Positions 1,339 to 62,960 of a stretch of 64,000 nt of DNA are shown here, one piece after another (position 1 is the first letter of the stretch; each line of letters starts with the position of its first letter). The translations under genes were made by a program, and so were the position numbers. The stretch comes from a virus: positions 1 to 64,000 of the IMG/VR virus record IMGVR_UViG_3300032265_001314; one strand, written 5' to 3'. The notes beneath the pieces were generated by a model. That model was not told the origin of the DNA. It saw only the letters and a program-made list of their open reading frames with translations, and did not search any database.

Positions 1339-1339
1339 C

Positions 1340-39815: not shown

Positions 39816-41117
39816 TTAGGATGCTTTACAGACGAATTCCTCAAACTTTCCGTTGGGAGGGAGTGGCCATTCCTTTTCATAACGTGTAACCGTATAGGTA
39901 AATGCATCACCTAGTGCCTTACGAGCGATAGCTATTAGAGCTTCTCTCTGTGTCTCCGTTATAGGATCGTCTGTTACTATCTTATATTCGATCATTTCTC
40001 TGCTGTGCTGTATGACCTGATACTTGCGTATGATAAAGTCTAGCTCGTCAAAGTTATACATACCAACCATGGGCCAATAGCGCCTACCATCCGGCTGTAT
40101 GATTAGATTGCGTTCTCTACCTACTACACGCTTTAGTGTTAGCAATCCTCTACCACAACTGCATTCCGGTCCACGTTCAGCATAGTCGCCTATAGAATAG
40201 CGTATCATTGGACTAGCATAATTGTGTAGATCAGTAACTACTACCCTGCCAATAGACCCCGCTGTGACTGGAGCACCTCGATCGTCTACAACTTCTACTA
40301 CGAGATTTTGATCCATAGTATGATAGAGATCGCTGTCTGGGCATTTAGCTGCGATAGAACCCATCTCTTGGCTGCTATATGAATCTTCGATATCTAATCC
40401 AAATAGCTGCTTAGTCCTAACTCTGAGGCTATCGCTAACAGTCTCGCCTATAGTTTTGATATGTTTAAGTTTGAACTGGGGAATATCCTTCTCCCATATA
40501 TCTAGCAGGGCCTTTAGATTGTTGGGATATACGATGAGGATGTTAGGATTAAAGCCGCGCAATAGCCTATCTTGTTCTTTGATATCAGTCCATATATTGA
40601 TAGACAGCATAGGTCCAGTTTCGTGCATTAGCGCATAAGGAGCACCCCAGTTAGATATTTCTTTATTTTCATGGTGTCCTGCTCGTATAGAAGCTAACCT
40701 TGACTTAAAGTCTCTCTTGTGCCAAAGTATCTCTTGATAGTTGAATGCGTAGAAGAACTGTGCTACTGTATCTGTAGCTTTGATTACTACAGGTTCGCCT
40801 GTTGACCCTGAGGTCTTGACTACGCCCGGCTTGCCGTGATCCTTTGGTACTTCTCTAGCAAAGAAACTTTCACCTGCCGATTGTATATCTCTACGAGAAA
40901 GCAAAGGTAGGGCAGTGATATTATCTACCGATATACCTTTAGGCTGTAATCCGGACACTCTTATGCGTTCTAGGAACCATTCACTGTTCTTCACGTGATG
41001 ATTTACTAATGACTTGAGCTTTACGGTCTGTATATCCCTAAGAGCCTTGGGAGTATACCACTGAAGCTGTGATAGAGTAGCCGTTAATGTCTTGAGTGCT
41101 TCTATCTTACTTGCCAT
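39816..41117 (-). CDS. Phenylacetate-CoA ligase-like (ANL) adenylating enzyme
   Basis: KTSGSTGEP, YSSQEMG, VVTDLHNYASPMIRYSIGD, CSCGRG, GRE. Confidence 0.88.
   Translation of the reverse strand: MASKIEALKTLTATLSQLQWYTPKALRDIQTVKLKSLVNHHVKNSEWFLERIRVSGLQPKGISVDNITALPLLSRRDIQSAGESFFAREVPKDHGKPGVVKTSGSTGEPVVIKATDTVAQFFYAFNYQEILWHKRDFKSRLASIRAGHHENKEISNWGAPYALMHETGPMLSINIWTDIKEQDRLLRGFNPNILIVYPNNLKALLDIWEKDIPQFKLKHIKTIGETVSDSLRVRTKQLFGLDIEDSYSSQEMGSIAAKCPDSDLYHTMDQNLVVEVVDDRGAPVTAGSIGRVVVTDLHNYASPMIRYSIGDYAERGPECSCGRGLLTLKRVVGRERNLIIQPDGRRYWPMVGMYNFDELDFIIRKYQVIQHSREMIEYKIVTDDPITETQREALIAIARKALGDAFTYTVTRYEKEWPLPPNGKFEEFVCKAS
40254..40265. repeat. 12-mer AGACCCCGCTGT, copy 1 (inside CDS)
   Basis: Exact copies at 44889, 60724 and 62949. 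Confidence 0.85.
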
Positions 41118-41877
41118 CTTTTTTCCAAACTATGATAGGGCAAGTGTCTGCTAGATCATATCCTGTAGTTTCTACAAAATCTGCAATATCAAATACACAC
41201 ACCCACTGCTGCCTGTCTGGCACAAAAGTCACTGTGTCTATGTTTTCATATAGATCTATCGTATTGATATCATCTATATTCCATCCCGTGCTCATGGCAA
41301 CATATTTTCGATCCAGTGCTATCTCATTAAATAGATCTCTAACTTTTGCTAGCTCAACTGGTCCGTTATTTTTTGCTGCTATATAATAGACCATCTTCCA
41401 TTTGAATCCGTTCCATCCTAACCCAGTGCGGGCTTGTAGGTCGTATTTTAATTCTTCTATCGTAACTGGTATCCTTGGGCGTTCAAACACACGCTGTATC
41501 AATCGACCATTTGGTTTTAACCAAAGCTTACACTTGTTTGCAAAGTTAACCATATTGTCTAATTTACCTAACAGTCCCAAAGCACCGTCACTTATGATAT
41601 TTCCAAACTGTCCTGGAGACCAAGTCATTGTTTTCCAATCAGCTAGAATGGCTTTTTTGGATTCGGTATCTCCGGGCCAAACAGTATCTATCATGTGTTG
41701 ATTAACATCTACTGCTAGCAGGTTATCAAATAGCGGATGGAATTCCGGTGTTACACCTAGCAATAGAGTCTCACCCGTAACACAGAGATCTCGCATCTGC
41801 TGTGCTACTTGAGTAGTAGGACGCAATGGTGGTGCTAGTCTATTCCAGCTAGCACTATGCTTGGGTAATGGATTCAT
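41107..41877 (-). CDS. SAM-dependent methyltransferase-like protein
   Basis: LLLGVTPE, LAVD, ILADW, IISDG, LKPNGRL. Confidence 0.6.
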   Translation of the reverse strand: MNPLPKHSASWNRLAPPLRPTTQVAQQMRDLCVTGETLLLGVTPEFHPLFDNLLAVDVNQHMIDTVWPGDTESKKAILADWKTMTWSPGQFGNIISDGALGLLGKLDNMVNFANKCKLWLKPNGRLIQRVFERPRIPVTIEELKYDLQARTGLGWNGFKWKMVYYIAAKNNGPVELAKVRDLFNEIALDRKYVAMSTGWNIDDINTIDLYENIDTVTFVPDRQQWVCVFDIADFVETTGYDLADTCPIIVWKKDGK

Positions 41878-42466
41878 TTTGTTTCCCTAATAGATAGTTA
41901 AGAACCATTCCATATAGTGGAACGATGATCGCCGATGCAAATATCAGCTTGCCAAGCACACCGTTAGTGGCTACTTCAAACCAATGCTCTGCCATAAATG
42001 CGTTTGCACTTCCAATAAATGCTGCTGCGAAGAACAAGTATGTTGATAGCGCCATCATAACATTGCCACTAATTAATGGAGCGATCCACCACTGTGTATA
42101 CTTTTCGCGTAGAAACTGGAATACATATACATCTAGTAACTGTGCTACAATGTAGCTAAATCCACTAGCAAGGGCTACTCGTACAGCGACCGATTCCGGA
42201 GCACCACTAGCCATTATAACTAGTATGCTAGCGAGGATACCTGGGATAAAACTTACTGCCACTACTAGCCTAGCCGTGTTCTTGCCTATCAATCTTACCG
42301 TTAGATCAGTTAGCAAGAATACCAATGGGTAGACTAACGTACTGTAGGCAATCGGACTATCAAACACCGTAAATTTGAAGTTAACTAAAAAGTTGCTAAA
42401 TGCAATCACTGCTGTATGTAATAGCATTAATCGTAATAAAATATTCTTATCTATGTTGTTAAACAT
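41855..42466 (-). CDS. yhhQ: Queuosine precursor transporter (YhhQ/VUT family)
   Basis: SNFLVN, YPLVFLLTDLTVRLIG, RVALASGFSYIVAQLLDVYVF. Confidence 0.85.
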   Translation of the reverse strand: MFNNIDKNILLRLMLLHTAVIAFSNFLVNFKFTVFDSPIAYSTLVYPLVFLLTDLTVRLIGKNTARLVVAVSFIPGILASILVIMASGAPESVAVRVALASGFSYIVAQLLDVYVFQFLREKYTQWWIAPLISGNVMMALSTYLFFAAAFIGSANAFMAEHWFEVATNGVLGKLIFASAIIVPLYGMVLNYLLGKQNESITQA

Positions 42467-43338
42467 TAAATGGTTCCTTTCGCATTATCGTCTCGCCATT
42501 CCATTATTTCTTTGTGCTCGCTATCTATTAGCTCGCTATAGCTCATTGGTTTAGCTTTGCTATCACGCACGAATGCTAATAGAAATCTCTTGCCGAAACC
42601 GTAATGTTCTGGATATTCTTTCTTAAGCGTATTGTATCCTCGTATATCTTCCTTGTAACCCAAACGATTCATTATAATCTTGAGTGCGCCCATGCTGGGT
42701 AAGATCCCTAGTATGTTGCTGACTGCTTCGTGATTGTCATGATGCATCATCTTACCATTATCATTGTAGCTAACAAATGGGTAACCGTATTCAACACCGA
42801 GCATTAGCTTATGTAAGCTCTCATATGATTCTTCTCCCTTTAGTTTTCCTATCTCATTAATCAAAGGTAATAAAAAAGGGATAGGTGGATGTATGCTTTC
42901 GATCACTATAGTATTAGCACAAGTTGCCATAGCAGTTAGGACAGGAAGGAAATTGGTGATAGCGTGTAGCACTCCACCAATGATTATATAATCGTATTCT
43001 TCCAAATTGTTCTCAAGGAAGGTTTCACAGCTATCTGTTACGATATCCCAGTTATCTAAGTACCCATAATATTTGGTGAGATTTTGATCAGCGATAGCTG
43101 CCAATGGTTTGCTTATTTCCACACCTACATATTTCTTAGCTCCGTTGCTTAAAGCATATGCTCCAAATGCTCCTAGACAGCAACCTAAATCCAGCACTGA
43201 TTTATCTTTTAAAAACTGTGGGGGTATCCAAGCTTCATATCTTGCTAGCTGCGTTTCTGCAGTGAATTCCCGTTCGATAGCTTGATCAGTGCGTGGATCT
43301 CTAGTGATAAAGTCTGTCTGTGTTTCAAATATGTTCAA
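42466..43338 (-). CDS. Class I SAM-dependent methyltransferase
   Basis: VLDLGCCLG, VGVEIS, YDYIIIGGVLH. Confidence 0.85.
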   Translation of the reverse strand: MNIFETQTDFITRDPRTDQAIEREFTAETQLARYEAWIPPQFLKDKSVLDLGCCLGAFGAYALSNGAKKYVGVEISKPLAAIADQNLTKYYGYLDNWDIVTDSCETFLENNLEEYDYIIIGGVLHAITNFLPVLTAMATCANTIVIESIHPPIPFLLPLINEIGKLKGEESYESLHKLMLGVEYGYPFVSYNDNGKMMHHDNHEAVSNILGILPSMGALKIIMNRLGYKEDIRGYNTLKKEYPEHYGFGKRFLLAFVRDSKAKPMSYSELIDSEHKEIMEWRDDNAKGTI

Positions 43339-44311: not shown

Positions 44312-44312
44312 T

Positions 44313-44540: not shown

Positions 44541-44541
44541 T

Positions 44542-45363
44542 TTATATCTCCACAATAAGGTTAGGATTAAATCCATTCGTCTCTCCTGGATATCCTCTAG
44601 GGTTACAAACGATACGGGTGTCGCCGATCATATAGTCCCAACAGTCGTGTACGTGTCCGTGGACCCATAATTTGATCTGAGGATGATCAACAATATACTC
44701 ATCAAGTCTATTAACAAATGCGTGATTCATTACATCTTGATTCTTGTACTTTGGATGTATGCTGCTATGTGATGGAGCGTGATGCCCAAGCACTACCACT
44801 TTGCCGTCCCAGCCGCGCACACCTTCCTTAATAAATTCTACTGCATATCTATTAGCTTTAACTGTATCGATAGGCCGCAGCTTATGATAGACCCCGCTGT
44901 TCTCGATAGTGATAGCACGGTAGTCAGTCATCATAAATCTAACACCCTCCATCGTCAATGGATCGGCATTGTTAATATCAGTCCATAGGCTAGTGCCAAT
45001 GATACGGGTATCACCTATATTGAGCCAAGTGTTATCCATCATAGTGATGTTTGGCCAAGGCTCAAGCGCATCCCTTAATCTTTCGGCTGTGTTATTCCAT
45101 CTACCGTGATAGTATTCGTGATTACCCATGATATAATAGACAGTATCAAACTCTAAGCTGATATGATTGAAAAACTCGCGATAACGTTCGGCATCTTTAG
45201 CATAGAATCCATTGTTAGGTAACCCATATGTTGCTGGATTTTTATAAAGATGATCTACCACGCAGATATCGCCAGCGAGCACAAGTGCATCTGCTCCAGC
45301 ATTAACGATTGTAGGCGGATCGCGGAATTCTAGATGTAAATCACTAATTATCTGCAGTTTCAT
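44542..45363 (-). CDS. Calcineurin-like metallophosphoesterase
   Basis: SDLHLE, LAGDI, GNHEYY, HHAPS, HGHVH, NPRGY. Confidence 0.92.
   Translation of the reverse strand: MKLQIISDLHLEFRDPPTIVNAGADALVLAGDICVVDHLYKNPATYGLPNNGFYAKDAERYREFFNHISLEFDTVYYIMGNHEYYHGRWNNTAERLRDALEPWPNITMMDNTWLNIGDTRIIGTSLWTDINNADPLTMEGVRFMMTDYRAITIENSGVYHKLRPIDTVKANRYAVEFIKEGVRGWDGKVVVLGHHAPSHSSIHPKYKNQDVMNHAFVNRLDEYIVDHPQIKLWVHGHVHDCWDYMIGDTRIVCNPRGYPGETNGFNPNLIVEI
44889..44900. repeat. 12-mer AGACCCCGCTGT, copy 2 (inside CDS)
   Basis: Exact match, read in a different codon frame from copy 1. Confidence 0.85.
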
Positions 45364-45647
45364 TTCTTTTTCCTCGGATTCCGATAGTATCCATAGTAGA
45401 TTTTTTTTAGTTTTTCAAGCTCAGGATGATCATGTATCCACTGCCCTGTATGAGGCGCAAACTTTTCTCGGAAGAAATCATCTAACAGCTCGTTATCGGT
45501 ACTTATCTGTACGTTGATAGCTTCAGCTAGAGAATCGAAATCACCATCACTTATAATGCTATCGTTTTCAAATTCATACGCATACGCCGCAACAGAAAGA
45601 CGGATCCTGTTGCGGCGCTCTACTTCAATAGGAGATCCCCACATCAA
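45360..45647 (-). CDS. Small protein resembling the NAD-dependent DNA ligase N-terminal (Ia) subdomain
   Basis: AYAYEFENDSIISDGDFD. Confidence 0.55.
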   Translation of the reverse strand: MMWGSPIEVERRNRIRLSVAAYAYEFENDSIISDGDFDSLAEAINVQISTDNELLDDFFREKFAPHTGQWIHDHPELEKLKKIYYGYYRNPRKKK

Positions 45648-46093
45648 AAATCTCCAGGTGCAACCTGCAGAACACGAACACCTGCCTCACGAACGGCATC
45701 CACAACCTGCTTGCGATCATCTACCCACAGCCAAGGCCAACCCCAATCACATTGGATATCGTGCAGCAGCTCAACCTTAACGATTGAGTCTTTGCGGTTG
45801 TCCTTCTCCGCTCTCATGTACAGATCATCGTAGTAGACATTGTTATCCTTCAGCCACTTCTCAGTGACTGCACGGGTCTCGCTACCACGTCCACTGCACA
45901 GAATGATACGGGTCGTGCCCTCAGCTTCAAACTGATTCAGCATCCATAAGATATCCTCATAGACAGTATCCAGATGCATTGCAGCATTCCAAGCAGCCCA
46001 GTTTTTAGGTTTGCTTGCGACCCAGTGGCGACGATGGTCTACGTTAGCTAACGTGCCATCGATATCAAATACGATTACCTTACCTACAAACAT
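45644..46093 (-). CDS. HAD phosphatase (T4 PseT/PNK 3'-phosphatase-like)
   Basis: FDIDGTLA, CSGR, LYMR..DNRKDSIVK, VDDRKQVV, VLQVAPGDF. Confidence 0.9.
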   Translation of the reverse strand: MFVGKVIVFDIDGTLANVDHRRHWVASKPKNWAAWNAAMHLDTVYEDILWMLNQFEAEGTTRIILCSGRGSETRAVTEKWLKDNNVYYDDLYMRAEKDNRKDSIVKVELLHDIQCDWGWPWLWVDDRKQVVDAVREAGVRVLQVAPGDF

Positions 46094-46331
46094 TGGTGGT
46101 TTCATTGAGGAGTTGCTGCGCTGCATCATAGGTGAGATAGTATTCCATTAGTGTTTCTATAGCAGCAACCCAGCGGCGATCAGCAGTTAAATCTTCAGAT
46201 TCAAAAGGTTTAATATCATCCCCTTTGGCTTCTAAAGCTGCTATCTCGCTTTTCAACCCTCGCCAATCCTGGATAAGGATATCACGGAATAGTGCTTCGG
46301 CTGTTTCGTTTTCAATCGTTATATTAAACAT
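46080..46331 (-). CDS. Hypothetical protein
   Basis: Operon packing, SD. Confidence 0.55.
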   Translation of the reverse strand: MFNITIENETAEALFRDILIQDWRGLKSEIAALEAKGDDIKPFESEDLTADRRWVAAIETLMEYYLTYDAAQQLLNETTNVCR

Positions 46332-46342
46332 TCCATCCTCTA

Positions 46343-46675
46343 TTAGTTTATAACCCCGTACAGATCTACTGCTATGTTAGTAGTCCAAAATTCTATCTTT
46401 AAAGCCTGACCCTCGTGATGATAGCCACTTAGGCTCAACATCATAGTGATCTCTTTCCAAACCTTATCACGCTGTTCACGATCATCAAATTCCATATGGA
46501 AATGTATCTTGCGTAATGTACCACCATACTCATAAGACTTAAAGTTTGGTGGTGTGTTCCAAGAACCCCAACGCGGCAGCTGCCTTGTTTTAGCTTTGGC
46601 TTTGTCTAAACCGTGTTTGATGAGGATAGAATTAACTATCTTCCTCAGCTTTTTGGTGCTCAGAGGTTGGGACAC
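46343..46675 (-). CDS. Hypothetical protein
   Basis: Operon packing. Confidence 0.55.
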   Translation of the reverse strand: MSQPLSTKKLRKIVNSILIKHGLDKAKAKTRQLPRWGSWNTPPNFKSYEYGGTLRKIHFHMEFDDREQRDKVWKEITMMLSLSGYHHEGQALKIEFWTTNIAVDLYGVIN

Positions 46676-46890
46676 TTGATGCCTATGTTTTCTAGCATGG
46701 TTTTAGCTAACGCACAACCACTGTTTTTTACATCTTTTTCTTTAAGATCCTGATGATCCATCACAGTTTTAGTGGTCAAATCTGTTAGCAATCGAACGAG
46801 AGCATCATCATTCCAATCTTCTACCCAATTGCGCTTTGTCCAACTGTAAGTGTACTTGTAGCTGTAGTTCCAAGGTTGTTCGTTATCCAT
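46660..46890 (-). CDS. Hypothetical protein
   Basis: AAGGAG SD before MDNEQPW; promoter upstream. Confidence 0.55.
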   Translation of the reverse strand: MDNEQPWNYSYKYTYSWTKRNWVEDWNDDALVRLLTDLTTKTVMDHQDLKEKDVKNSGCALAKTMLENIGIKCPNL

Positions 46891-46915
46891 GATTGCTCTC
46901 CTTACTTTATAATAT

Positions 46916-46943
46916 ATTATAACATAAAACAGAGGATTGTCAA
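46916..46943 (-). promoter_or_regulatory. Sigma70-type early promoter
   Basis: TTGACA-ATCCTCTGTTTTATGT-TATAAT; similar elements near 50380-50409, 51498-51526, 52002-52029, 52559-52586. Confidence 0.7.
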
Positions 46944-47164
46944 GCGATAATGCCACTCCATCTAAGCAAGAACAATAATTTTATATTTTCATTAGGGAAT
47001 TGGAAGAAGTATTCTTGTCCTCTGCGCAACACATTCCAATCTTTATAATATTTCAATCCTTGATCTTCCATCCAGGAATGTATATAGGGAATAGGATGCA
47101 GCTGTTCAAATCCGGTTTCATAGTAGAGCCACTTTTGATCTGCTTTTAGTTCTACCCAATCCAT
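46940..47164 (-). CDS. FLLRW-family small protein
   Basis: FQFPNENIKLLFLLRWS. Confidence 0.7.
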   Translation of the reverse strand: MDWVELKADQKWLYYETGFEQLHPIPYIHSWMEDQGLKYYKDWNVLRRGQEYFFQFPNENIKLLFLLRWSGIIA

Positions 47165-47451
47165 TGCAACAATACCTTTATAAATCCCACGCTATCCATG
47201 CTGGCTATCATTAAAAACGTAGCCAACATACCAAAACTATCTCTGCTATAAGCACACCAAGCATAGGCCAATGTACCACCGATCCAAAGCGGATAAAGAA
47301 GCAAGAAAGGTAAGTTAGGTACTGTGCTGTTAACTATAATTGCACAAACTAAACTATCTACCCAACAGAGCGTTTCCACTACGAATCTAACAGGATGGCT
47401 GCGCCAGTCCTGTTTAATCCATTCCCATATTTCTCTGATAGGTTCTATCAT
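47152..47451 (-). CDS. Small 3-TM membrane protein
   Basis: Start MIEPIRE via ATGA overlap with GAGGT SD; ends in TAG. Confidence 0.6.
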   Translation of the reverse strand: MIEPIREIWEWIKQDWRSHPVRFVVETLCWVDSLVCAIIVNSTVPNLPFLLLYPLWIGGTLAYAWCAYSRDSFGMLATFLMIASMDSVGFIKVLLQWIG

Positions 47452-47663
47452 TTGTACCTCAATAAAAACATGGTCTTGTATTTTTCTTCCCAAAAATCGA
47501 GATAGTAACCACTGCCCCATGTTGGGCTTTTAGATCGAACAACGAATCCAAGTTTAGTTCGTTGCACCCTAGGAATCATGATAGTGATTCCGTATTGTTC
47601 GATTAGTTTATGCCTTAAATCGTTCCATTGATCGTCATTTAATTCGATAGGTGGTAGACTCAT
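47448..47663 (-). CDS. FLLRW-family small protein
   Basis: LDFWEEKYKTMFLLRYK. Confidence 0.7.
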   Translation of the reverse strand: MSLPPIELNDDQWNDLRHKLIEQYGITIMIPRVQRTKLGFVVRSKSPTWGSGYYLDFWEEKYKTMFLLRYK

Positions 47664-47869
47664 AACCATTTCAGCGCAAATATAACAGCTGCCTTCTTAT
47701 CATAAATCCGTATCCAAACATCGTCATCTAGAGAATATAGATCCCATAGCTGTGGTTCGTCCGTTGGAGGGTTAGGTAGTTCCTTCTCTAGCCAATCGGC
47801 TGCTTCTCGGGCTTTGATTATTCCTTCCATCCCCTCACCCATCTTATAATCAACATAAGTTTCAGTCAC
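47660..47869 (-). CDS. FLLRW-family small protein
   Basis: IYDKKAAVIFALKWL. Confidence 0.7.
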   Translation of the reverse strand: MTETYVDYKMGEGMEGIIKAREAADWLEKELPNPPTDEPQLWDLYSLDDDVWIRIYDKKAAVIFALKWL

Positions 47870-48111
47870 GACCACCTCAGGAGGAATAGGCTCGCAGTCT
47901 TTTCATCAGGAAGCTCAACCCAAGTCTCGTGAACATTACAGTCGTGCTGCCAGCACCATTCAACAAAATCGTCGTCGTCTTCTAGCTTGCGATTGACTAG
48001 GTGATCAGATGTAGTACGCTCCCAGAAGAACGTGCGGATGGCTGGACTGTATTCCCATTTGCGTTTCATCAAATGTTTCCTCTTGACCCATTTCTCGTAT
48101 ATTAATTTCAC
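47866..48111 (-). CDS. FLLRW-family small protein
   Basis: PDEKTASLFLLRWS. Confidence 0.7.
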   Translation of the reverse strand: MKLIYEKWVKRKHLMKRKWEYSPAIRTFFWERTTSDHLVNRKLEDDDDFVEWCWQHDCNVHETWVELPDEKTASLFLLRWS

Positions 48112-48353
48112 GACCACCTCAGCAGAAATAGAGACATCTCTTTTTCATTCTTAAAACGGAACTCACTAAAACTCATGCGCTTACCACAGCTATTAGCTTT
48201 ACACCATTCCTGTACAGTTTTCATCTGTAGTTCAGTCGGAGTATGGAATATGTTTTCATTATATTCAGTATCTTTGGCTTTTAGCCAATAGCGGTCGCCT
48301 ACACGTTCCCACAATACCTTCTTGGTAGGCATGGGCTGTACATAGTTAATCAT
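48108..48353 (-). CDS. FLLRW-family small protein
   Basis: FKNEKEMSLFLLRWS. Confidence 0.7.
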   Translation of the reverse strand: MINYVQPMPTKKVLWERVGDRYWLKAKDTEYNENIFHTPTELQMKTVQEWCKANSCGKRMSFSEFRFKNEKEMSLFLLRWS

Positions 48354-49120
48354 TATGCATCATCCTTGTGTCTACGGAAGGTCCATTTGTCAAACCCGTG
48401 TTTGGCTATCTTAACAACATCGTTGGTGATCTCTACCATTGGATTAGGATTGCAGGGAATCACACCTCCAACAAACATACTGATCTCTTGGAACAGAGTG
48501 TAGGGATCGATCGCTTTAGGGAAGCCGTAATCCTTGAGAGACTTGCCGTTTTCTGCAGAGTTGCATTGCCACATTATAGGATTTCTCCTATAGTAGCCTC
48601 GATCTCTGCGCTCGCACCAAACTGCTGTAACTACCCTGTTATCAATCAACCATTCTAGCTGTTGTGCTGTAGCTGCTATAGGGATAAAGAAGGTTTTAAG
48701 ATCGGGAAATATATCTTTCTCCGTCTCTAACTTCTCCCACTTGTATCTTTTAGAAGAAGGCTTAGCTACTTCTCTATCAAACCCTGCTAGCCAGGCAACA
48801 AAGTCATCATAGCGCCAGAATACGTTAAGTATCTCACTACCAAACTCTTTTACTACACGTATTCCGCCATAGTGTTTTCCTGCTACATAGATGCTGATAG
48901 GCAACAGCACCAAAACAGTCATACCTAATGCAGGATCTTTATACTTAAGAGTGTTGTTGTCACTCCAAGATTTGCCTTTAATGATGCTATGGGGATAGCC
49001 CGCATAAAGCGGACAATCTCTGTCAGAGATCTCTTTGTGCTCACGCACAAAGACAACTTCGCTATCTTGCCCATATGCTAGGGCAGAATCATAATAATCG
49101 TGCCCACCTATGATACGCAT
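48353..49120 (-). CDS. Conserved phage hypothetical protein
   Basis: MRIIGGHDYYD...FQEISMF...KHGFDKWTFR. Confidence 0.7.
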   Translation of the reverse strand: MRIIGGHDYYDSALAYGQDSEVVFVREHKEISDRDCPLYAGYPHSIIKGKSWSDNNTLKYKDPALGMTVLVLLPISIYVAGKHYGGIRVVKEFGSEILNVFWRYDDFVAWLAGFDREVAKPSSKRYKWEKLETEKDIFPDLKTFFIPIAATAQQLEWLIDNRVVTAVWCERRDRGYYRRNPIMWQCNSAENGKSLKDYGFPKAIDPYTLFQEISMFVGGVIPCNPNPMVEITNDVVKIAKHGFDKWTFRRHKDDA

Positions 49121-50361
49121 TAGCTATCTCCATCAAACTGATAATTCCAATGTGCTCCTTCCCAAAGGCCGCGCACACTATCTATCCTAGTCTGTGTTCC
49201 GCAGTTCTTCTTGATAGCATCGATGATCATATTGCGGGTATTCTTACCATCAAACTTACCAAAGATAAACTGCGGAGCGAAAGGATCCTGGTCCTTGATA
49301 GTAGGCATCCACTGTAGGGCATAGGTCTTGCGATCCAATCCGGCATTCTGTACCATCAACCAATACTTATCGTACTTGTCAACACTGCTAGCGATACCTC
49401 CCCAGAACTCAGATTCAAAAGCTTCTAGACGCTTGCGATCGTCATCTAGCATAAAGCTCTTGATATCATCGATACCTGCAGAAGTTATCATTTCAACCAC
49501 ATTCTTCTCTTGGCTCAGATGATCCTTAGTCTTATGGATGCGAAGGTACCATTCGCCTTTGACCTTGAGCATATGCCCATCGTCAAAGCGCACGATCCAT
49601 CCTTCGATTCCTTGTGAGGAACGAGTTTCATCCATTAGTAAAGCCAAGTCCTCCGAATCACCATCGTATGCCTTGACTACGTCGATGCCAAACTGATCTC
49701 CCAAAGCACACATTTCACCGTAGCTCTTATATTCTCCAGTGACAGTGTGACGCAGAGCGATGAGAACCAGACGATCCTCAGGATAATCAATCACGATACG
49801 CTGCTTGCGGCTGCACCATTCAAATACAGGAGTTATACCTAGTGTCATGACAAACATAGCAAATCGAGCATAATCGGGATTGCGAGCCACAAATTCCTCT
49901 GCACCCATACCTACATCAGTAAGACCCATCTTGGTGCCCCAACGCACATATCCACCCGATATGATACCATCAGGTCCTGTGGTAGTACCTACAATCACAG
50001 GAGTGATCATAGATCCATCAAGCTTCTCAAGCACGACGTGAGGTTGTGAAAAATCGATCTTGCTGAACTGCGTCTCATCACGCTCGTTCACATTGAAAAA
50101 CTTGTGCAGGCGGCGGCTCATTATAGTGCCATCCTTGTTAAACAATAGACCACGACACTCACGACGGATGGCGTTACGCTCTGCGATCAGATCGTGCTCA
50201 AGTTCGGGAGATTCATCTACAGGCGGAAAGGTATCAGCCATTGCGACCATGTAGTTAACCACATAGCCCCATTCACGCTCTGCGATGATGAACTCATCAC
50301 ACCCCTCGATAGCAGGACGCACATCATCTAGATGCTGTATAGACGGAAACTGATAACGCAT
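49120..50361 (-). CDS. rnlA: T4 Rnl1-like RNA ligase
   Basis: RECRGLLF, HKFFNVNE, EKLDGSMI (motif I), FEW, EGWIV, KVKGEWY. Confidence 0.9.
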   Translation of the reverse strand: MRYQFPSIQHLDDVRPAIEGCDEFIIAEREWGYVVNYMVAMADTFPPVDESPELEHDLIAERNAIRRECRGLLFNKDGTIMSRRLHKFFNVNERDETQFSKIDFSQPHVVLEKLDGSMITPVIVGTTTGPDGIISGGYVRWGTKMGLTDVGMGAEEFVARNPDYARFAMFVMTLGITPVFEWCSRKQRIVIDYPEDRLVLIALRHTVTGEYKSYGEMCALGDQFGIDVVKAYDGDSEDLALLMDETRSSQGIEGWIVRFDDGHMLKVKGEWYLRIHKTKDHLSQEKNVVEMITSAGIDDIKSFMLDDDRKRLEAFESEFWGGIASSVDKYDKYWLMVQNAGLDRKTYALQWMPTIKDQDPFAPQFIFGKFDGKNTRNMIIDAIKKNCGTQTRIDSVRGLWEGAHWNYQFDGDS

Positions 50362-50414
50362 TTTGCTCTCCTATTTTTATTATTATAGCAGATTTTGTGC
50401 GCAAGTCAAGCTGA

Positions 50415-51464
50415 TCAAAACGCATTAAAATAATTAAACTCTGGAACCCTTTCGCGGGTTAGCTTGATAAATCCGTTTTCAAAACTAAACATAAACACTC
50501 CGCTATTGCTGTCAATGTTCTTGAGATCATTCGGACTAACACGGATAGTCTGCCAGTTTTCGTCGCCGGCTTCGTCAGTTCCATCTACGTAGTCAAACAT
50601 TAAATTGCCTGTCAGCGGATTTCCGTGCCAATTCTCTTCAACCTTAACAGGAAGATTATCCTTGATCATTTCCACCTTGTAGTTGATCTTGTTACTGTGC
50701 TCTGGCTTAGCATTAAGCATACGCATAGATTCTTGAGGAGTTTCGTTGTAGCGGTTCATTTCTTCAACTAGAGCCTTGAGCATATCAAAATTGAAAGCAT
50801 CGTATAGTGTAGAGATCTTGCAGATACTATCAATATGTGTCTTGTTATTGAGATTATCTTCACAATACTCACGGATAAACTCAACAGCTAGTCCTTTAAA
50901 GTCTAGCATATAGAAGATGCGTCCTGGACGATTGCGCATATGGCTGTCAATGCGCCACTTGTCGTTACAAGTAAGCACGAACAGCTTCTTGCTAGGAAAC
51001 ACACCATCCAACAGCGTTAGGATGCTTTCCTGTTCGCTGGAATCGTATACCTTCTCAAACTCATCAAACAGCACGATGCAGGGCTGCTCGATGCTCTGGA
51101 TCAGCTTGTTAAAGGCATCGCCCTTCCATGCTGAGTTAATGAGGATCGTTGGATAGCCCTTTTCGGCTCCGCGCATACTAAGTGTCTTGGCCAGTAGCGT
51201 CTTGCCGCTGCCTTTCTCTCCGTTTAGCAACACACCTGTGCTAGCAGTGCGAGAATCAAAGGTATTCAAGATTCGATCTGCATTGCGTCCGGTATCTCCG
51301 TAGAGCTTGCCTTTGTATTCAAAATCACCAGTCTGTTCCAAGAATAGGTTGCCAAACATATCCTGCTTGATAATGTAATTGCCCGGAGGCAGCAGCTTGT
51401 GTAGGTCAAGGGCTGCTTCATCGGACACGCGGAATGTATTACCATTACGTAGGAAGTAAGTCAC
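50415..51464 (-). CDS. AAA-family ATPase
   Basis: GEKGSGKT, VLFDEFEK, LLDG, NRPGRIFY. Confidence 0.88.
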   Translation of the reverse strand: MTYFLRNGNTFRVSDEAALDLHKLLPPGNYIIKQDMFGNLFLEQTGDFEYKGKLYGDTGRNADRILNTFDSRTASTGVLLNGEKGSGKTLLAKTLSMRGAEKGYPTILINSAWKGDAFNKLIQSIEQPCIVLFDEFEKVYDSSEQESILTLLDGVFPSKKLFVLTCNDKWRIDSHMRNRPGRIFYMLDFKGLAVEFIREYCEDNLNNKTHIDSICKISTLYDAFNFDMLKALVEEMNRYNETPQESMRMLNAKPEHSNKINYKVEMIKDNLPVKVEENWHGNPLTGNLMFDYVDGTDEAGDENWQTIRVSPNDLKNIDSNSGVFMFSFENGFIKLTRERVPEFNYFNAF

Positions 51465-51522
51465 TGTATGATCCTTCTGTTTTTTCAGTGTTATGATAAT
51501 ATAGCAGAGTTGTTTTATTGTG

Positions 51523-51981
51523 TCAAGCGGTAATTATCTCGTCAAAGCCCTCATCGTATGAAGGCTCTTCCAAACTGCGGATCATGCCGTTGAGCACGTT
51601 CCACGGGATGCTCTTGCCTGGACGGCTATCTAAACGCCGCTGATGCTCATCCCACTCTGGAGTAGGAAAGAACACTGCAATCTTCTCGTAGTCCTTTGGA
51701 ACTGACTGTAGCTTGCCAGCACGACTCTTCTTAGAGATATTAGTCTGATCTAGTATCACATCCTGTCCTGCCGCAAAAGCGATTTTCATTTCTTGCTGCA
51801 CGGCTGCGGTAGCAATCTTAATCATATCAGCAAACTCAGCGTTATATGAGGTTCCGTTCTCTTCTGCTCGCTTTTCAATATGATAATCGCTGCTTACGAT
51901 TAGTTCACCATTTTGGTAATGCTTGAGCCAAGTGCTCTTACCTGCGCCCGGCACACCTATTAACATATAAAACTTAGGCAT
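51523..51981 (-). CDS. P-loop kinase (AAA_33, polynucleotide-kinase-like)
   Basis: GVPGAGKST, SSD, ILDQTN...R, EEPSYDEGF. Confidence 0.85.
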   Translation of the reverse strand: MPKFYMLIGVPGAGKSTWLKHYQNGELIVSSDYHIEKRAEENGTSYNAEFADMIKIATAAVQQEMKIAFAAGQDVILDQTNISKKSRAGKLQSVPKDYEKIAVFFPTPEWDEHQRRLDSRPGKSIPWNVLNGMIRSLEEPSYDEGFDEIITA

Positions 51982-52033
51982 TTTTAATCTCCTGTTATTC
52001 TATTATACATAATACAAGAGATTTGTCAAGTAA

Positions 52034-52551: not shown

Positions 52552-52582
52552 ACTCTTATTATAGAGATTAGCCTGTCAGATG

Positions 52583-54190: not shown

Positions 54191-54214
54191 GGTTTAAATC
54201 TCCTGCTGGAGTAT

Positions 54215-54532
54215 TTATGCCCACTTCAGCTGAAACCACGCTAGCTCTACATCGCTTTTTAGATAGATACGCATCTGATGATTGTCTGTATCCCAAGCCC
54301 ACTTATCATTTATACAGGAATTAGTATCAAAATACATTCCTAACTCAACTGTAGGTCCATATGTCTCCCAACACCATTGCCTAACCTTGCTAAAAGCTTC
54401 TGCTTTTTCTTGCCAAGTAGGTTTAGGGATAGATATTCCATATTTAAGGACATATTTCTCAGGTTCCACGATGTAATTAAACCAAGTATATCCATTATAT
54501 CGCCTATCCAATTTCTTTGCTTTGAACTTCAT
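54215..54532 (-). CDS. FLLRW-family protein
   Basis: VRQWCWETYGP...IYLKSDVELAWFQLKWA. Confidence 0.65.
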   Translation of the reverse strand: MKFKAKKLDRRYNGYTWFNYIVEPEKYVLKYGISIPKPTWQEKAEAFSKVRQWCWETYGPTVELGMYFDTNSCINDKWAWDTDNHQMRIYLKSDVELAWFQLKWA

Positions 54533-55029
54533 CTAGGTACTAGTTCCTCTATAGCCTTTGGTGTATAGTCTTGCACTTCAACAGAGCAGTTGATATAACG
54601 CTCTCCTGGACTAGGGTTCTGATGGATATGCCCGTGTAGGTTGTACTGTACCTTGAACATCCCACTCTCGTGGATAGGAACGTGTGTTAGAACACAATTA
54701 AACTCCGGAAACATACGCCACATCAAGACCTTCTGGAAGTTGACCTGTATGTAAGATGCTTTACCATTGTCGTGATTGCCTAAGATCAAACGCTTGCGCC
54801 CCTTGAGTCTGGGCAAGACCTTATGCCCGTGCTCAAAGTAAACGTCACCGAGGTGATAGACGATATCGCTATCACCTACTACACTGTTCCAACGTTCTAC
54901 CATATGCTCATCCATCTCTTCAACAGATGCGAACTGTGGCCGGATAAGCTCGCCACTAGTACTGTCAGTGAACTTTAGTATGTTACTATGACCAAAGTGT
55001 GTATCGCTCACTATGAATATATTACTCAT
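54529..55029 (-). CDS. Calcineurin-like phosphoesterase
   Basis: SDTHFGH, HLGDV, GNHD, THVP, HGHIH. Confidence 0.9.
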   Translation of the reverse strand: MSNIFIVSDTHFGHSNILKFTDSTSGELIRPQFASVEEMDEHMVERWNSVVGDSDIVYHLGDVYFEHGHKVLPRLKGRKRLILGNHDNGKASYIQVNFQKVLMWRMFPEFNCVLTHVPIHESGMFKVQYNLHGHIHQNPSPGERYINCSVEVQDYTPKAIEELVPR

Positions 55030-56479: not shown

Positions 56480-56547
56480 TATCTCACCTTATTATATTAT
56501 ATATTAACATAAAAAATTTAATGCGTCAAGTGGTATATAAATATCAA

Positions 56548-57609
56548 ATGCAAAACAAGTTCTGTAGAGTGTTATCTAACGCATTAAGTTTCAGGGTACC
56601 GGGAGATACAGGAAAATTATCCTTTAATCCCTGTTGTCTATATGATGATTACATCGAATTCAATTATGAAAATTTTAAGGATGAAAGACTCAAATATACA
56701 ACTGCTACTGATTTCCTCCCAGGTTGTAGTAAATGTAAATTGAAAGAAATTACGCACGGAAGCAGTATGAGAACAGATGCTTTTGAACGTATACCCGGAG
56801 ATATCGGTAATGACATCTATAAATTAGAAGTAGTATTAGATACTACCTGCAATGCTGCTTGTATACAATGTGGACCTATACAAAGTTCTCTATGGAGGAA
56901 AGAATTAAAACTACTTGATTTTCCGGAATCTAATGTCAAAAAAGAATTAGATAGATTGAAAGTATTAATCGATATAGATAAAGTAAAAGATTTTCATTTT
57001 TGGGGAGGAGAACCATTAGCAACCAATACACACTTAGATATGATAAGAGAAATAAAAGATCCTAGCACAGTGACACTGAGATATGCTACTAATGGCAGTA
57101 TCTTTCCAGATGAAGAGCTATGGAATCTTTACTCTAAGTTCCATAAGGTAACTTTTAATATCAGCATAGACGGTATAGGTGATCAGTTCCACTATATGAG
57201 ATGGCCATTAGAATGGAAAAAAGTATCTAAGAATCTTCTTAGGTTTAAGAATGAATGCTCTGACAACACCCGATTGTTTATAAATTACTGTGTGGTTCCG
57301 CTGAACAGCTTTTACGTTTTAGAAATGGAAGAATGGTTAGATGCGAATGCTAAGATATCGCATAATAATAAACCTATAGAATTAAGCTACATACGAGGAG
57401 AAGGTACTCTAAATATTTCAAACACACCGATGGCTCTTAGAGAAAAGGTTTGGTCAACCCTAGGAGAAAATCATACAGTAAGTAATATATTAAGAGAAGT
57501 TCCAGTCAATGATCATAGACATATGGTTAACTATCTAGATCATTGGGATAAGGTCAGGAAGTTAGAATGGCGATCGATATTTCCAGAAGTTGGAAAATTT
57601 TATGATTGA
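56548..57609 (+). CDS. Radical SAM protein
   Basis: CNAACIQC, GGEP, TNGS, SIDG; start MQNKFC 4 nt after TATAAATA; paralog of 61079..62167. Confidence 0.85.
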   Translation: MQNKFCRVLSNALSFRVPGDTGKLSFNPCCLYDDYIEFNYENFKDERLKYTTATDFLPGCSKCKLKEITHGSSMRTDAFERIPGDIGNDIYKLEVVLDTTCNAACIQCGPIQSSLWRKELKLLDFPESNVKKELDRLKVLIDIDKVKDFHFWGGEPLATNTHLDMIREIKDPSTVTLRYATNGSIFPDEELWNLYSKFHKVTFNISIDGIGDQFHYMRWPLEWKKVSKNLLRFKNECSDNTRLFINYCVVPLNSFYVLEMEEWLDANAKISHNNKPIELSYIRGEGTLNISNTPMALREKVWSTLGENHTVSNILREVPVNDHRHMVNYLDHWDKVRKLEWRSIFPEVGKFYD

Positions 57610-57611
57610 AC

Positions 57612-59959: not shown

Positions 59960-59969
59960 TAATAGTGCT

Positions 59970-60224
59970 TCACCCAGGATTTTGATTTATATAATCATTT
60001 ACCTCTTCGTCTAATCGATCAAAACAAGAAGTGGCAAAATGTCCAATAATAATTGCCGATGGAATGAGTATTGATTTATCTTCTAATCCTAAAGACCATA
60101 GTATATAATATACAGAAAAGATGAATGGAATTTTGTGAAAGATAAAAATACCTATAAGCCATAATAAGAAATTTGGTTTAGTATCAGCATCCGCTCTCTT
60201 CTGTATCTTTTTTTCTTTTTCCAT
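59970..60224 (-). CDS. Small membrane protein
   Basis: Hydrophobic segments. Confidence 0.5.
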   Translation of the reverse strand: MEKEKKIQKRADADTKPNFLLWLIGIFIFHKIPFIFSVYYILWSLGLEDKSILIPSAIIIGHFATSCFDRLDEEVNDYINQNPG

Positions 60225-60537
60225 ATTTGATAAGCTCCGTTAATTTCTTATTGCGATAGTCTTGCTCTGCTCTAGCGATTTTTTTATCATCCACTAAACG
60301 AAGCATTGAAAAGTACTCTTTGGCTTTGGACCAACCCAAAAGGAAACTTCTTAGCTCTTCTGCTGTACCGCGGGCTAATTCTATATTGCGTGTGTATACA
60401 GGTAAGGAATCATCTTTTGCTATCAATGCTAATGAGGGTGTACCAAATACTTCACTAGACTGTAGCTCAAAACCTTGATGGAGACAGAATGTTTCGAGCT
60501 CTTTTAAAACCCGGTAGTGGACGGCTGTAGTAGTCAT
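60184..60537 (-). CDS. Hypothetical protein
   Basis: GAGGAG SD and sigma70-like promoter upstream. Confidence 0.65.
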   Translation of the reverse strand: MTTTAVHYRVLKELETFCLHQGFELQSSEVFGTPSLALIAKDDSLPVYTRNIELARGTAEELRSFLLGWSKAKEYFSMLRLVDDKKIARAEQDYRNKKLTELIKYGKRKKDTEESGC

Positions 60538-60584
60538 ACTAGTGCTCCTCTGTATTATTTAATATAACACATTACTAAATAGTG

Positions 60585-60683
60585 TCAATACAAATAAGGG
60601 ATAAGGCATAGCATAATACCCACTGTAACTGCCATCCAGTTGATGGCCAATAGCACGAATAGAGTCTTTATAAAATTTATCAT
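60585..60683 (-). CDS. 32-aa single-TM peptide (not in ORF track)
   Basis: MINFIKTLFVLLAINWMAVTVGIMLCLIPYLY; promoter immediately upstream. Confidence 0.45.
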   Translation of the reverse strand: MINFIKTLFVLLAINWMAVTVGIMLCLIPYLY

Positions 60684-60723
60684 ATTTTAGTTATAACACT
60701 AATCAGATCAGCAGTCAAGCAAA

Positions 60724-60735
60724 AGACCCCGCTGT
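60724..60735. repeat. 12-mer AGACCCCGCTGT, copy 3 (intergenic)
   Basis: Exact match. Confidence 0.85.
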
Positions 60736-60739
60736 AGTA

Positions 60740-61060
60740 TTATCTAGATCCCGACACTTTAGAATTGGCAGCAACGGCACCTTGATAAATCCTTTGCGCT
60801 TTTGACATCAGCTTGTCGGTTAGTGTTGGTGGTTTATATTCTGGATCAGTTAGCTGTTGGACGAACGCATTTCCGAATGTAGCAAGAGGATTTGGAGTCT
60901 TGGGGTCGTCTACATCATCAGGACTATTTGGATTCTTCAGAGGTTTTTTATTTTGGTAGCGAGAGTTATATTTGTCCACGGCACGTTGCAGATAAGCGGC
61001 TTTATGCAGCTTATCTGGATCAATATCGTAATACTCTTCTGTAAACTCTTTAGCTCTCAT
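60740..61060 (-). CDS. Putative internal virion protein
   Basis: N-terminus MRAKEFTEE; TAAATA 5 nt upstream. Confidence 0.55.
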   Translation of the reverse strand: MRAKEFTEEYYDIDPDKLHKAAYLQRAVDKYNSRYQNKKPLKNPNSPDDVDDPKTPNPLATFGNAFVQQLTDPEYKPPTLTDKLMSKAQRIYQGAVAANSKVSGSR

Positions 61061-61078
61061 AGCTGTATTTATCCTGCT

Positions 61079-62167
61079 TTAAATTTTAAAGTGTTCTACT
61101 ATCTCTGGGAATATCTTCTTCCAGTCCAGCTTACGGGCTGCATCGTGATATTCTATATACTGCATAAATTTAGCATATTCCGTTGGATCAAATTTATCCA
61201 TTAATCTCGATTCATAAGATTCAATTCCATATTTTTCTATTATCGCTTGCTGTAGTGTAGGAGGAATGCATCTTAGATTCATTATTCCAGTCGCCGCATG
61301 ACCTTTCTTAAACCAAAATTTAGGTTTTACAGAAGGTATATCTTTTAGGAAATCGCAAACCCATTCGTTATATTCTTTTATATAGAATATATTAAATGGA
61401 TTCACTGTGAAACTGATACTGAAATTTTTGTTATCAGTTTTTAAATTTGTAAATTTCCATAAATTTTCCTTTACTTGATTCCATTGGAGAGGCCATCTTA
61501 TATAATTAAAATGATCACCTGTACCATCTATACTAAAATTTATTTTGATGCCTTTGAAAGAAAGCAAAAGATCCAGGGTAGGTTGATCAGGAAATATACT
61601 ACCATTAGTGATATAATTTATTATTATATCTTGTGGGTTCTTGATGTTCTTAAGTATCTCTGTATGTGTATTAGTCTTGAAAGGTTCTCCACCAAAGAAA
61701 TTTATAATTTTAACTTTATCAAAATCAATGAGATCATTGATAGCAGCAATAGCATTGGTCAAATTAACACGAGGCGGGGCCGCTGTTAAACCACCCAAGG
61801 TCTTTTGATTATACTCTCGCCAAGTAGTACTTGTCCAAGGGCCACACATTATACAAGCTGCATTACAAGTATCATCTATCTGTATTTCTATTTTAGTAGG
61901 ATCTCCAGATTGGATATCAGGATCATTAAATTCAACAAGATCAAATCCTTTTTGCCTTGGAGATATAATACCTTTCTTTTCGACATTATAACAGTAAGAA
62001 CACTCAGGTATCCAATCAGTTACTTCAGCTAGCCGAGCCTTTTGCTCTTGTACAGCCTGTTTATCAAACACGCTAATATCTGTGTTTTTAATCCAACAGC
62101 ATGATTTGACCTTATCAAAGTTGAAGTTGTATTGATTGGATAAAAAGACGCAAAAAGTATTTTTCAT
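61079..62167 (-). CDS. Radical SAM protein
   Basis: CNAACIMC, GGEP, TNGSIFPD, SIDGTGDHFNYIRWPL. Confidence 0.85.
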   Translation of the reverse strand: MKNTFCVFLSNQYNFNFDKVKSCCWIKNTDISVFDKQAVQEQKARLAEVTDWIPECSYCYNVEKKGIISPRQKGFDLVEFNDPDIQSGDPTKIEIQIDDTCNAACIMCGPWTSTTWREYNQKTLGGLTAAPPRVNLTNAIAAINDLIDFDKVKIINFFGGEPFKTNTHTEILKNIKNPQDIIINYITNGSIFPDQPTLDLLLSFKGIKINFSIDGTGDHFNYIRWPLQWNQVKENLWKFTNLKTDNKNFSISFTVNPFNIFYIKEYNEWVCDFLKDIPSVKPKFWFKKGHAATGIMNLRCIPPTLQQAIIEKYGIESYESRLMDKFDPTEYAKFMQYIEYHDAARKLDWKKIFPEIVEHFKI

Positions 62168-62188
62168 ACGGATATTTATTGATAAAAA

Positions 62189-62265
62189 TGGCGACCTCGG
62201 AGCGATTCGAACGCCCGACCCAGGGAGTAGAAATCCCTTGCTCTATCCTGCTGAGCTACGAGGCC
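62189..62265 (-). tRNA. tRNA-Arg(TCT)
   Basis: GGCCTCGTAGCTCAGCAGGATAGAGC-AGGGA-TTTCTAC-TCCCT...GTTCGAATC...CGAGGTCGCCA. Confidence 0.95.
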
Positions 62266-62297
62266 ATAATATAATAATAACTAATAAATTAAAAATG

Positions 62298-62873
62298 TCA
62301 ATGGAAATTGAAAAGATAATTTACTCTACTTTTTGCCATATTTTTAAGTTTTTTCATTCCACCAGCAGAGATTCTAAATTGCCAAGAATCATCTCTATCA
62401 ATTATTCGTTCTAGATTTCCAAAAATAGATCCCTTGATATAAGTTGATCTATTTCCTGCTTTGTACTGCTGCCTTATTTTTTCGTAAGCATCTTCGAATT
62501 TTTGTTGGATAAAAGGGTCAGAAAAATCATATATCTCAGTATTTGTAACTACAGCAAAATCATCATTATAATCAATATGATATTGTGTTTGTAATTTTTG
62601 ATACAAATGCGTATCTCTGTAAGCTAAACTAATTAATTCCTCTCCATGGATAACACCTACCGTATGGGGACTTGTTGATCCGTTCTTTCTAGATTTGATT
62701 TCGACTTTGAGTGCCGGTATATCAACCCCTTTTCCGTTTGATATTCCAAAACCTTTATTCCTCATTTCTTTTTCAAAATAGCGACCATTATTACCATTAG
62801 ATTGAGAATAGGGGACTTGGTCGCCTACATTTATTGCATTCCTAAGTTTTTTTAGTTTGATTTTTGTGCTCAT
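62298..62873 (-). CDS. Putative PD-(D/E)XK restriction-endonuclease-like protein
   Basis: GRYFEKEM...GVDIPALKVEIKSR. Confidence 0.5.
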   Translation of the reverse strand: MSTKIKLKKLRNAINVGDQVPYSQSNGNNGRYFEKEMRNKGFGISNGKGVDIPALKVEIKSRKNGSTSPHTVGVIHGEELISLAYRDTHLYQKLQTQYHIDYNDDFAVVTNTEIYDFSDPFIQQKFEDAYEKIRQQYKAGNRSTYIKGSIFGNLERIIDRDDSWQFRISAGGMKKLKNMAKSRVNYLFNFH

Positions 62874-62948
62874 TTATAATACTCCGTAGGTATTTTTTAA
62901 TAATAGCATATTATTTATATTGCTCAAATCTTTTTATTATCGCGGAGT

Positions 62949-62960
62949 AGACCCCGCTGT
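62949..62960. repeat. 12-mer AGACCCCGCTGT, copy 4 (intergenic)
   Basis: Exact match; 14-nt identity with copy 1. Confidence 0.85.

Follow-up and report, generated by a model that had tools for sequence, protein, structure and literature searches.

A short strand-polar DNA word conserved within one genome domain of a large uncultured freshwater phage

Phage T5 has been known since the 1960s to carry nick motifs on one strand, and such motifs were later also described for tf-like and phiKMV-like phages; their function is unexplained. The corresponding motifs are 5'-TACT/RTGMC-3' in tf/LUZ24-like phages, WACTRTGAC in Rembedalsseter, CGACxxxxxCCTA/CTCCGG in phiKMV-like phages and R/GCGCRGG in T5. 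For the tf nick motif, only 17 sites were found, even when any single substitution was allowed, and the positions of nick sites are alike among related phages, again with no function assigned to them (PMC3517423). The Rembedalsseter motif is shared by 61 relatives of this phage, where it clusters in one part of the genome, and 88% of its copies are located in coding sequence (PMC11780129). In this study, a word resembling these motifs in several respects was analyzed, namely the 12-mer AGACCCCGCTGT, which was observed in IMG/VR virus record IMGVR_UViG_3300032265_001314, a viral contig of 91,271 bp originating from a large, uncultured, myovirus-like freshwater phage. The analyzed window comprises bases 1-64000 of this contig, and positions of word copies are given in contig numbering. 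CheckV estimated the contig to be 27% complete, so that the genome would measure roughly 340 kb, and comparison of one protein places the phage closest, among cultured phages, to Methylophilales phage Melnitz and Pelagibacter phage HTVC008M (37% identity). Results obtained for this word indicated that it is very probably a real, selected and strand-polar DNA signal that is private to one phage lineage.

In the window, exact search recovered the four copies reported in a first-pass annotation of this DNA (40254, 44889, 60724 and 62949, in the following copies A to D), all of them on the plus strand; as the annotation had stated, neither a minus-strand copy in the window nor a copy on either strand in the first 40 kb was detected. 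The word was absent from all dinucleotide-preserving shuffles (0/100), in agreement with its assumed improbability by chance, and the count in the whole contig turned out to be even higher. In total, ten exact copies were found there, the four mentioned above and those at 64507 (copy E), 64746, 69736, 72505, 86059 and 87708, complemented by two occurrences of AGACCCCGCTGC (the 11-mer AGACCCCGCTG with C as the 12th base), which follow the full copies 86059 and 87708 on their right with a spacing of 26 bp, at 86085 and 87734. A count of the 11-mer on both strands of the contig therefore yielded 12 forward and 0 reverse occurrences, spanning 40.2-87.7 kb.

All 12 positions of the word are fixed in every copy, except for the 12th base in the two cases mentioned, and each of its 8-mer sub-words is restricted to the 12 copies within the whole contig. 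Variants with one mismatch were not found in the 91-kb contig, and sites with two mismatches occurred at chance level and were not conserved; in the window, a tolerance of up to two mismatches to AGACCCCGCTGT added a single site at 11426, which likewise corresponds to the chance level. The base preceding the word is A or T at every copy, and no flank sequence beyond this base is shared among the contig copies. Furthermore, the word is not palindromic, and no common hairpin or terminator was found at the copies, since 72-nt windows around them fold at background energy (-12.8 +/- 5.2 kcal/mol) on both strands. The annotation's description of a GC-rich word in AT-rich DNA is correct for the word, while the surrounding DNA is AT-rich only in relative terms (42% GC for the contig, 33-37% near copies C and D). 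Chance or artefact was ruled out by the shuffles and by recurrence of the word in four independent assemblies, and the word is an oriented signal. Avoidance of the kind seen for restriction sites was rejected, as 5-7-nt sub-words are not depleted elsewhere.

Conservation in homologues, which had been named beforehand as a check, was evaluated by means of related metagenomic sequences. The 116-kb genome fragment IMGVR_UViG_3300002307_000027 (G001) is collinear with the contig at approximately 80% nucleotide identity, Ga0208618_1000067 (L048) is 98% identical to the contig, and a further sequence, L118, is approximately 75% identical at the methylase site described below. G001 harbors eight exact 11-mers and one variant, TGACCCCGCTG, all in forward orientation (9 versus 0 reverse) and at orthologous places (25008, 29667, 45689, 45928, 50220, 52604, 67370 and 68906/68932); in L048, the word was found four times forward and zero times reverse. 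Seven aligned pairs of contig and G001 copies, as well as the second copy of the doublet at 87.7 kb, show zero substitutions within the word, while their alignable 60-nt flanks are approximately 83% identical. According to our own calculation, the chance of 84 unchanged bases at this divergence is about 1e-7, and the word is thus under purifying selection.

Single loci illustrate the same pattern. The ortholog of copy A in G001 (25008) is identical between flanks retaining 51/60 and 48/60 bases, and the ortholog of copy B is located at 29667. Copy C is kept in L048 (position 2412) and absent from G001, where the corresponding stretch is replaced. The methylase site retains all 12 bases of the word in the contig, L048, G001 and L118, four genomes in which the 13th base is T, G, C or A. 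Homologues of the metallophosphoesterase harboring copy B that are approximately 60% identical encode ENNGTY or ERNGVY by other codons and do not contain the word. Near-cognate sites in G001 lean towards the plus strand; this is probably an effect of base composition, because these sites are not conserved.

The word is confined to a domain of approximately 45 kb around the point of diverging transcription. No copy was found outside this domain, neither in contig 1-40 kb nor in G001 1-25 kb or 69-116 kb. The domain covers the proximal part of the leftward block, with RNA-repair-like and radical SAM genes, as well as the larger part of the early block, which is rightward, promoter-dense and GC-richer. 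Moreover, the word is private to its lineage: about 70 metagenome loci with a methylase of at most 77% identity contain no copy, not even the 8-mer core, and about 20 of these distant loci, each at least 12 kb in length, revealed no analogous GC-rich polar word. As to presence in host genomes, another point raised by the annotation, a 14-mer scan of 185,579 prokaryote species genomes returned scattered single matches among the matches listed, a weak negative for a host-borne word. The same scan of viral contigs also gave scattered single matches among those listed, and the 26-bp doublet pattern, searched for in IMG/VR contigs, was found in G001 only.

Up to approximately 68 kb, genes are directed leftward; between 68.5 kb and the contig end, most of them point rightward, and GC and AT skew change sign where gene direction flips. 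The word stays on the plus strand in both blocks. A sigma-70-like promoter word (TTGAC...TGCTATTAT) tracks gene direction, with 22 plus-strand occurrences, of which 20 are in the rightward block, and three minus-strand occurrences, all in the leftward block. Copies A and B are antisense as written in leftward genes and occupy two different frames (ACA GCG GGG TCT and AAC AGC GGG GTC), which the annotation had assigned correctly. Coding copies contain rare codons, namely GCG and GGG, which account for 8% of Ala and 6% of Gly codons, respectively. The constraint at the nucleic-acid level deduced from the differing frames is reinforced by these codons and by the invariance in relatives with diverged flanks, and the proposed oriented signal is strictly one-stranded in the independent assemblies too. 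Since the strand is constant across opposite gene directions, the word is read on DNA and not on RNA. Transcripts of the two blocks would bear complementary 12-mers; therefore, the RNA processing site considered in the annotation, as well as any other RNA-level signal, is ruled out and a promoter is disfavored.

Of the ten loci, three are located in genes; the other seven are non-coding, although a simple longest-ORF (open reading frame) map assigns approximately 93% of the contig to coding sequence. Our own binomial estimate for this non-coding excess is about 1e-5. A stop codon, -35-like hexamer or ribosome-binding site lies at a distance of 0-14 nt from the intergenic copies, in varying geometry. 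For example, one doublet begins 6 nt past a stop codon, with 2 nt separating the end of its second copy from the ATG that follows, while the other doublet overlaps a TAA stop codon upstream of a GAGGAG ribosome-binding site.

Among the possible functions, strand-specific nick (sci) sites of the T5/tf kind are favored here as a tentative interpretation. The word AGACCCCGCTG(T) would be recognized by a DNA enzyme, probably phage-encoded, with specificity for both sequence and strand. Late in infection, this enzyme would nick the same strand at every copy, and packaged DNA would then carry one-strand nicks over the 45-kb domain, comparable to those of coliphage T5, Pseudomonas phage tf with its LUZ24-like relatives, and the phiKMV-like phages. 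The nicks would render the sites prone to recombination, which fits the gain and loss of cassettes beside some copies. Like the T5 and tf nick motifs, the word is short, strict and located on a single strand regardless of gene direction, has few near-cognates, occurs in coding as well as non-coding sequence, keeps its positions, and is limited to one genome part and to one group of phages (PMC3517423, PMC11780129). Features by which nick motifs are recognized, i.e., one strand irrespective of genes, a strict consensus and orthologous positions in relatives, were observed in this case, the first for the contig, G001 and L048, the second for the contig and the third for G001, L048 and L118; the contig ends do not coincide with the word.

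Several observations weigh against nick sites. Assemblies supply no physical evidence of nicks, so that the nick itself, as well as the enzyme and its timing, is what we infer, and no cognate nickase was recognized among approximately 60 scanned ORFs of the 91-kb contig. Seven of the ten loci are non-coding, compared with about 12% for tf-type motifs (88% coding, PMC11780129). The word measures 12 bp, in contrast to known nick motifs, which comprise 7-9 bp or, for phiKMV-like phages, a split word of 19 bp; neither a 12-bp length nor 26-bp doublets were found in the nick reports consulted. In addition, the word differs from those of nick-motif phages in being GC-rich and restricted to about 45 kb of a genome of about 340 kb, and its phage is large and myovirus-like, unlike the podoviruses and T5-like phages in which nick motifs were described. 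Should the word nevertheless mark nick sites, a counterpart in an unrelated large uncultured phage would suggest that strand-marked genomes are widespread. It would also add constraints on their function, as the sites are present in one domain only and mostly between genes, where close relatives differ by cassettes. A reader with strand specificity for 12 bp, if found, would be of practical use as a rare-cutting nickase or binder.

In order to find a candidate reader, approximately 60 ORFs of the contig, which comprises 91 kb of the roughly 340-kb genome, were scanned; no recombinase, ParB or clear nickase was among them. A 400-aa ORF is located just upstream of the methylase gene, overlapping its start, in all relatives, and diverges faster than the methylase (25-46% versus 64-77% identity at the same loci). 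Its structure model is confident (predicted local distance difference test, pLDDT, 88). The N-terminus gave a weak nucleotidyltransferase-like fold match (Z about 6), and the remainder gave weak matches to I-Ssp6803I (Z 5.6) and R.HhaI (Z 4.6) and an Atlas lead to R.HinP1I (0.89). Because all these fold matches are below the noise levels of the tools, a restriction-enzyme-like nuclease paired with the methylase is regarded as a lead only. The two genes may constitute a phage-borne restriction-modification-like pair.

Two further ORFs were considered. The 191-aa ORF next to copy D has no family match, a single database homologue (58% identical), no homologue in the fetched relatives and an AlphaFold2 model with a pLDDT of 42. 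A conserved stretch GVDxPxxxVEIKxRK (D-x6-E-x-K) was read by eye, and the insertion carrying the ORF lies between a promoter and tRNA-Arg and has its ends in -10 boxes, which gives it the look of a mobile, free-standing gene for a nuclease. Weak HNH matches (E 0.006-0.01, under the cut-offs) were obtained for a 166-aa ORF that is missing from G001 and highly divergent in L048, and is probably another free-standing homing-endonuclease-like gene. For the nick-site interpretation it is unfavorable that each of these two ORFs is missing from some relative that keeps the word.

Rather unlikely is an explanation according to which the word serves as a recombination site at cassette junctions, either for a site-specific recombinase or as the sole shared microhomology; direct copies would be kept since exchange between inverted copies would invert gene blocks. 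This explanation draws on the variable regions around the copies. L048 lost the 225-bp cassette between copies 64507 and 64746, with a deletion junction exactly within the repeated aaAGACCCCGCTGT of both copies. Homology between contig and G001 resumes 2 nt left of copy E and breaks 16 nt left of copy 72505, and the blocks absent from G001 are delimited by copies C, D and E; instead of contig 60570-64505, G001 contains approximately 0.68 kb of unrelated DNA with an ORF and a tRNA-like sequence read by eye. The annotation had noted that copies C and D bracket a radical SAM gene, a tRNA-Arg and a nuclease-like gene. The block was indeed found to be a variable cassette zone with the first two of these (radical SAM gene at 29.8 bits versus a Pfam cut-off of 29.5), while the designation of the 191-aa ORF as nuclease-like was left unsupported by the family search and the structure model. 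That the majority of loci are intergenic also agrees with a role at cassette junctions.

Association of the word with the ends of homology blocks is, however, not significant, with two of seven intergenic loci located within 20 nt of a contig/G001 block end, an expectation of 0.095 per locus and P of about 0.14. Copy D sits in a 696-bp segment missing from L048, the ends of which lie in promoter -10 boxes (TGCTATTAT-like) and not at the word, and the word does not mark the ends of divergence patches between contig and L048 either. Moreover, three copies are inside conserved genes and under selection, neither a recombinase near the copies nor an attC-type hairpin was found, and deletion between 14-bp direct repeats requires no dedicated enzyme. 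Copies thus sometimes serve as recombination junctions, and recombination as their purpose is not demonstrated by the data.

Cassette systems known from other elements were compared. PeSL cassettes of T4-type phages consist of an early promoter and a stem-loop flanking variable ORFs. As in these cassettes, small variable ORFs of the contig are flanked by short conserved sequences between genes, in a hyperplastic early or middle region, and the cassettes differ between close relatives; unlike PeSL, the word constitutes no promoter or stem-loop, occurs in conserved genes as well and ignores gene direction. A PeSL-like role falls here to the promoter -10 boxes at the 696-bp indel. The 225-bp cassette resembles integron attC arrays in that a small promoterless ORF is tightly bounded by direct copies of a site. 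An attC-type site was rejected, as the copies share no structure and no integrase is among the scanned ORFs; the word also lacks the imperfect inverted repeat or hairpin, measures 12 bp versus 60-140 bp and has copies in essential-looking genes.

An oriented site for a one-way DNA machine, such as a terminase or packaging motor, a control of ejection or first-step transfer, a Chi-like helicase-nuclease or a polar fork barrier, is considered unlikely. Strict polarity over 47 kb spanning divergently transcribed blocks and restriction to one domain including the promoter-dense early block are in line with it, and clustered Chi sites in lambdoid phages offer a partial precedent (PMC12315714). Like Chi (RecBCD/AddAB), KOPS (FtsK) and SRS (SpoIIIE), the word is non-palindromic, strand-polar and spaced at kilobase distances. 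In contrast, those sequences comprise 5-8 nt, are host-owned and abundant in host chromosomes, whereas the word has 12 fixed positions, far more than known Chi or KOPS words, belongs to a phage lineage and returned the scattered single matches among those listed for host genomes. Its membership in the Chi, KOPS or parS families, suggested in the annotation, is therefore not upheld, the last also owing to the lack of a palindrome. The contig and G001 are both fragments and do not place the genome ends; GC skew, checked for replication direction, merely mirrors gene direction and consequently yields none. A parS or centromere site, i.e., a palindromic 14-16-bp site or par-linked iterons, was rejected in view of the non-palindromic word, the kilobase distances between copies other than the doublets and the lack of a ParA/ParB match among the scanned proteins.

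Similarly unlikely is an operator of a monomeric DNA-binding regulator, or an insulator at gene boundaries, with inherited or incidental orientation. The seven intergenic loci at short distances from stop codons, promoters or ribosome-binding sites, the identical 26-bp spacing of the two doublets and the sigma-70-like promoters adjoining copies 60724, 62949 and 72505 would agree with such a role. The geometry, on the other hand, is inconsistent: at 62949 the word is located downstream of a -10-like element, at 60724 and 72505 upstream of a -35-like hexamer (copy C directly precedes a promoter-like site, TTGACT-N17-TATAAC, directed leftward), and at 64746 in the place of a ribosome-binding site. 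Uniform facing of all ten loci would have a chance of about 0.002 if orientation were irrelevant, and three copies are deep in genes.

It is doubtful, but conceivable, that the word acts as a private address label marking the 45-kb domain, with the early block and its neighbour, for one-strand handling by an unrecognized phage protein with 12-bp specificity. Such handling might, for example, consist in DNA entry by stages, in selective replication at an early time, or in recombination started from targeted nicks and feeding cassette turnover, and such a label would constitute a mechanism beyond the unexplained T5/tf nicks. Very unlikely is the remaining explanation, in which the minus-strand word ACAGCGGGGTCT is the promoter or start site of a phage-specific RNA polymerase transcribing the left block leftward and the early block in antisense: a fixed GC-rich word is typical of single-subunit polymerase promoters and the minus-strand word lies 9-25 nt upstream of start codons (64746, 64507) and before other leftward genes, but four of the ten loci oppose the local genes and would fire antisense into rightward genes, one from within the methylase gene, conservation is limited to 12 bp with no common flank, and a phage RNA polymerase gene was not seen in the 91 kb examined.

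Table 1. Copies of the word, variable segments and further features, in contig numbering (window = bases 1-64000).
Feature	Position	Strand	Description
Copy A	40254..40265	+	inside minus-strand gene 39816-41117 (weak AMP-binding-like match); read on the minus strand as ACA GCG GGG TCT
Copy B	44889..44900	+	inside metallophosphoesterase gene 44542-45363 (-); read as (A)AC AGC GGG GTC (T)
Copy C	60724..60735	+	intergenic; end of ORF 60740-61060 (-) is 5 nt away
Copy D	62949..62960	+	intergenic; upstream of 191-aa ORF 62298-62873 (-)
Copy E	64507	+	just past the window end
Copy in methylase gene	69736	+	in sense inside rightward N6/N4 DNA methylase gene (Pfam PF01555, E 3e-41); codes QDPAV
Doublets	86059/86085 and 87708/87734	+	both between rightward genes; identical 26-bp spacing
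Block between copies C and D	60736..62948	-	ORF 60740-61060, radical SAM gene 61079-62167, tRNA-Arg(TCT) 62189-62265, ORF 62298-62873
Start of block between copies D and E	62961..64000	-	ORFs 62997-63845 and 63871-64482 (282 aa, 203 aa); in L048, not in G001
696-bp indel	62280..62975	-	191-aa ORF and copy D; present in the contig, absent from L048
225-bp cassette	64519-64743		between copies 64507 and 64746; 72-aa ORF; word, 9 nt, ATG to stop codon, 8 nt, word
400-aa ORF	68502-69704	+	with the methylase gene, 68502-70618
166-aa ORF	73917-74417	+	HNH-like
tmRNA	988-1352	-	alphaproteobacterial two-piece (permuted) type
tRNA with CUA anticodon	24179-24250	-	tRNA-Pyl according to ARAGORN
RNA-repair-like set	45644-51981	-	T4 Rnl1-type RNA ligase 49120-50361, PNKP-type phosphatase 45644-46129, kinase-like P-loop protein 51523-51981
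Metallophosphoesterases	44542-45363 and 54529-55029		the former harbors copy B
Radical SAM ORFs	56521-57609 (+) and 61079-62167 (-)		362 aa each; at Pfam threshold
PP-loop ATPase	55868-56479
Gene-free stretch	86690-87030		approximately 340 bp, between the doublets
Early block	71.3-91.3 kb	+	GC-richer (45-52%)

Further features of the contig were observed beside the word. Genes at 38-64 kb read well under translation table 11, and this region contains the RNA-repair-like set and the two metallophosphoesterases listed in Table 1. Both radical SAM ORFs, together with the PP-loop ATPase, may form a nucleoside or tRNA modification module. The phage encodes a transfer-messenger RNA (tmRNA; RF01849 140 bits, RF04321 122 bits) with the tag ANDNVATYEMALAA according to ARAGORN; because it is of the alphaproteobacterial permuted type, its sequence hints at an alphaproteobacterial host. 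Furthermore, the tRNA with CUA anticodon may be an amber suppressor.

In the early block, approximately 20 strong sigma-70-like promoters (TTGACA, a 13-20-nt spacer as searched, TGCTATTATA and an extended -10) precede small ORFs on the plus strand. In G001, this block corresponds to a 26-kb rightward island between leftward blocks. The gene-free stretch between the doublets yielded no Rfam match at the gathering threshold; it contains three copies of TTGGGACAGGA, the AT-rich palindrome AATAATGATATAAACATATCTTTATATCATT and a repeated TAGCCTG, and could represent an origin or a small RNA gene. The palindrome and its surroundings are nearly identical in G001.

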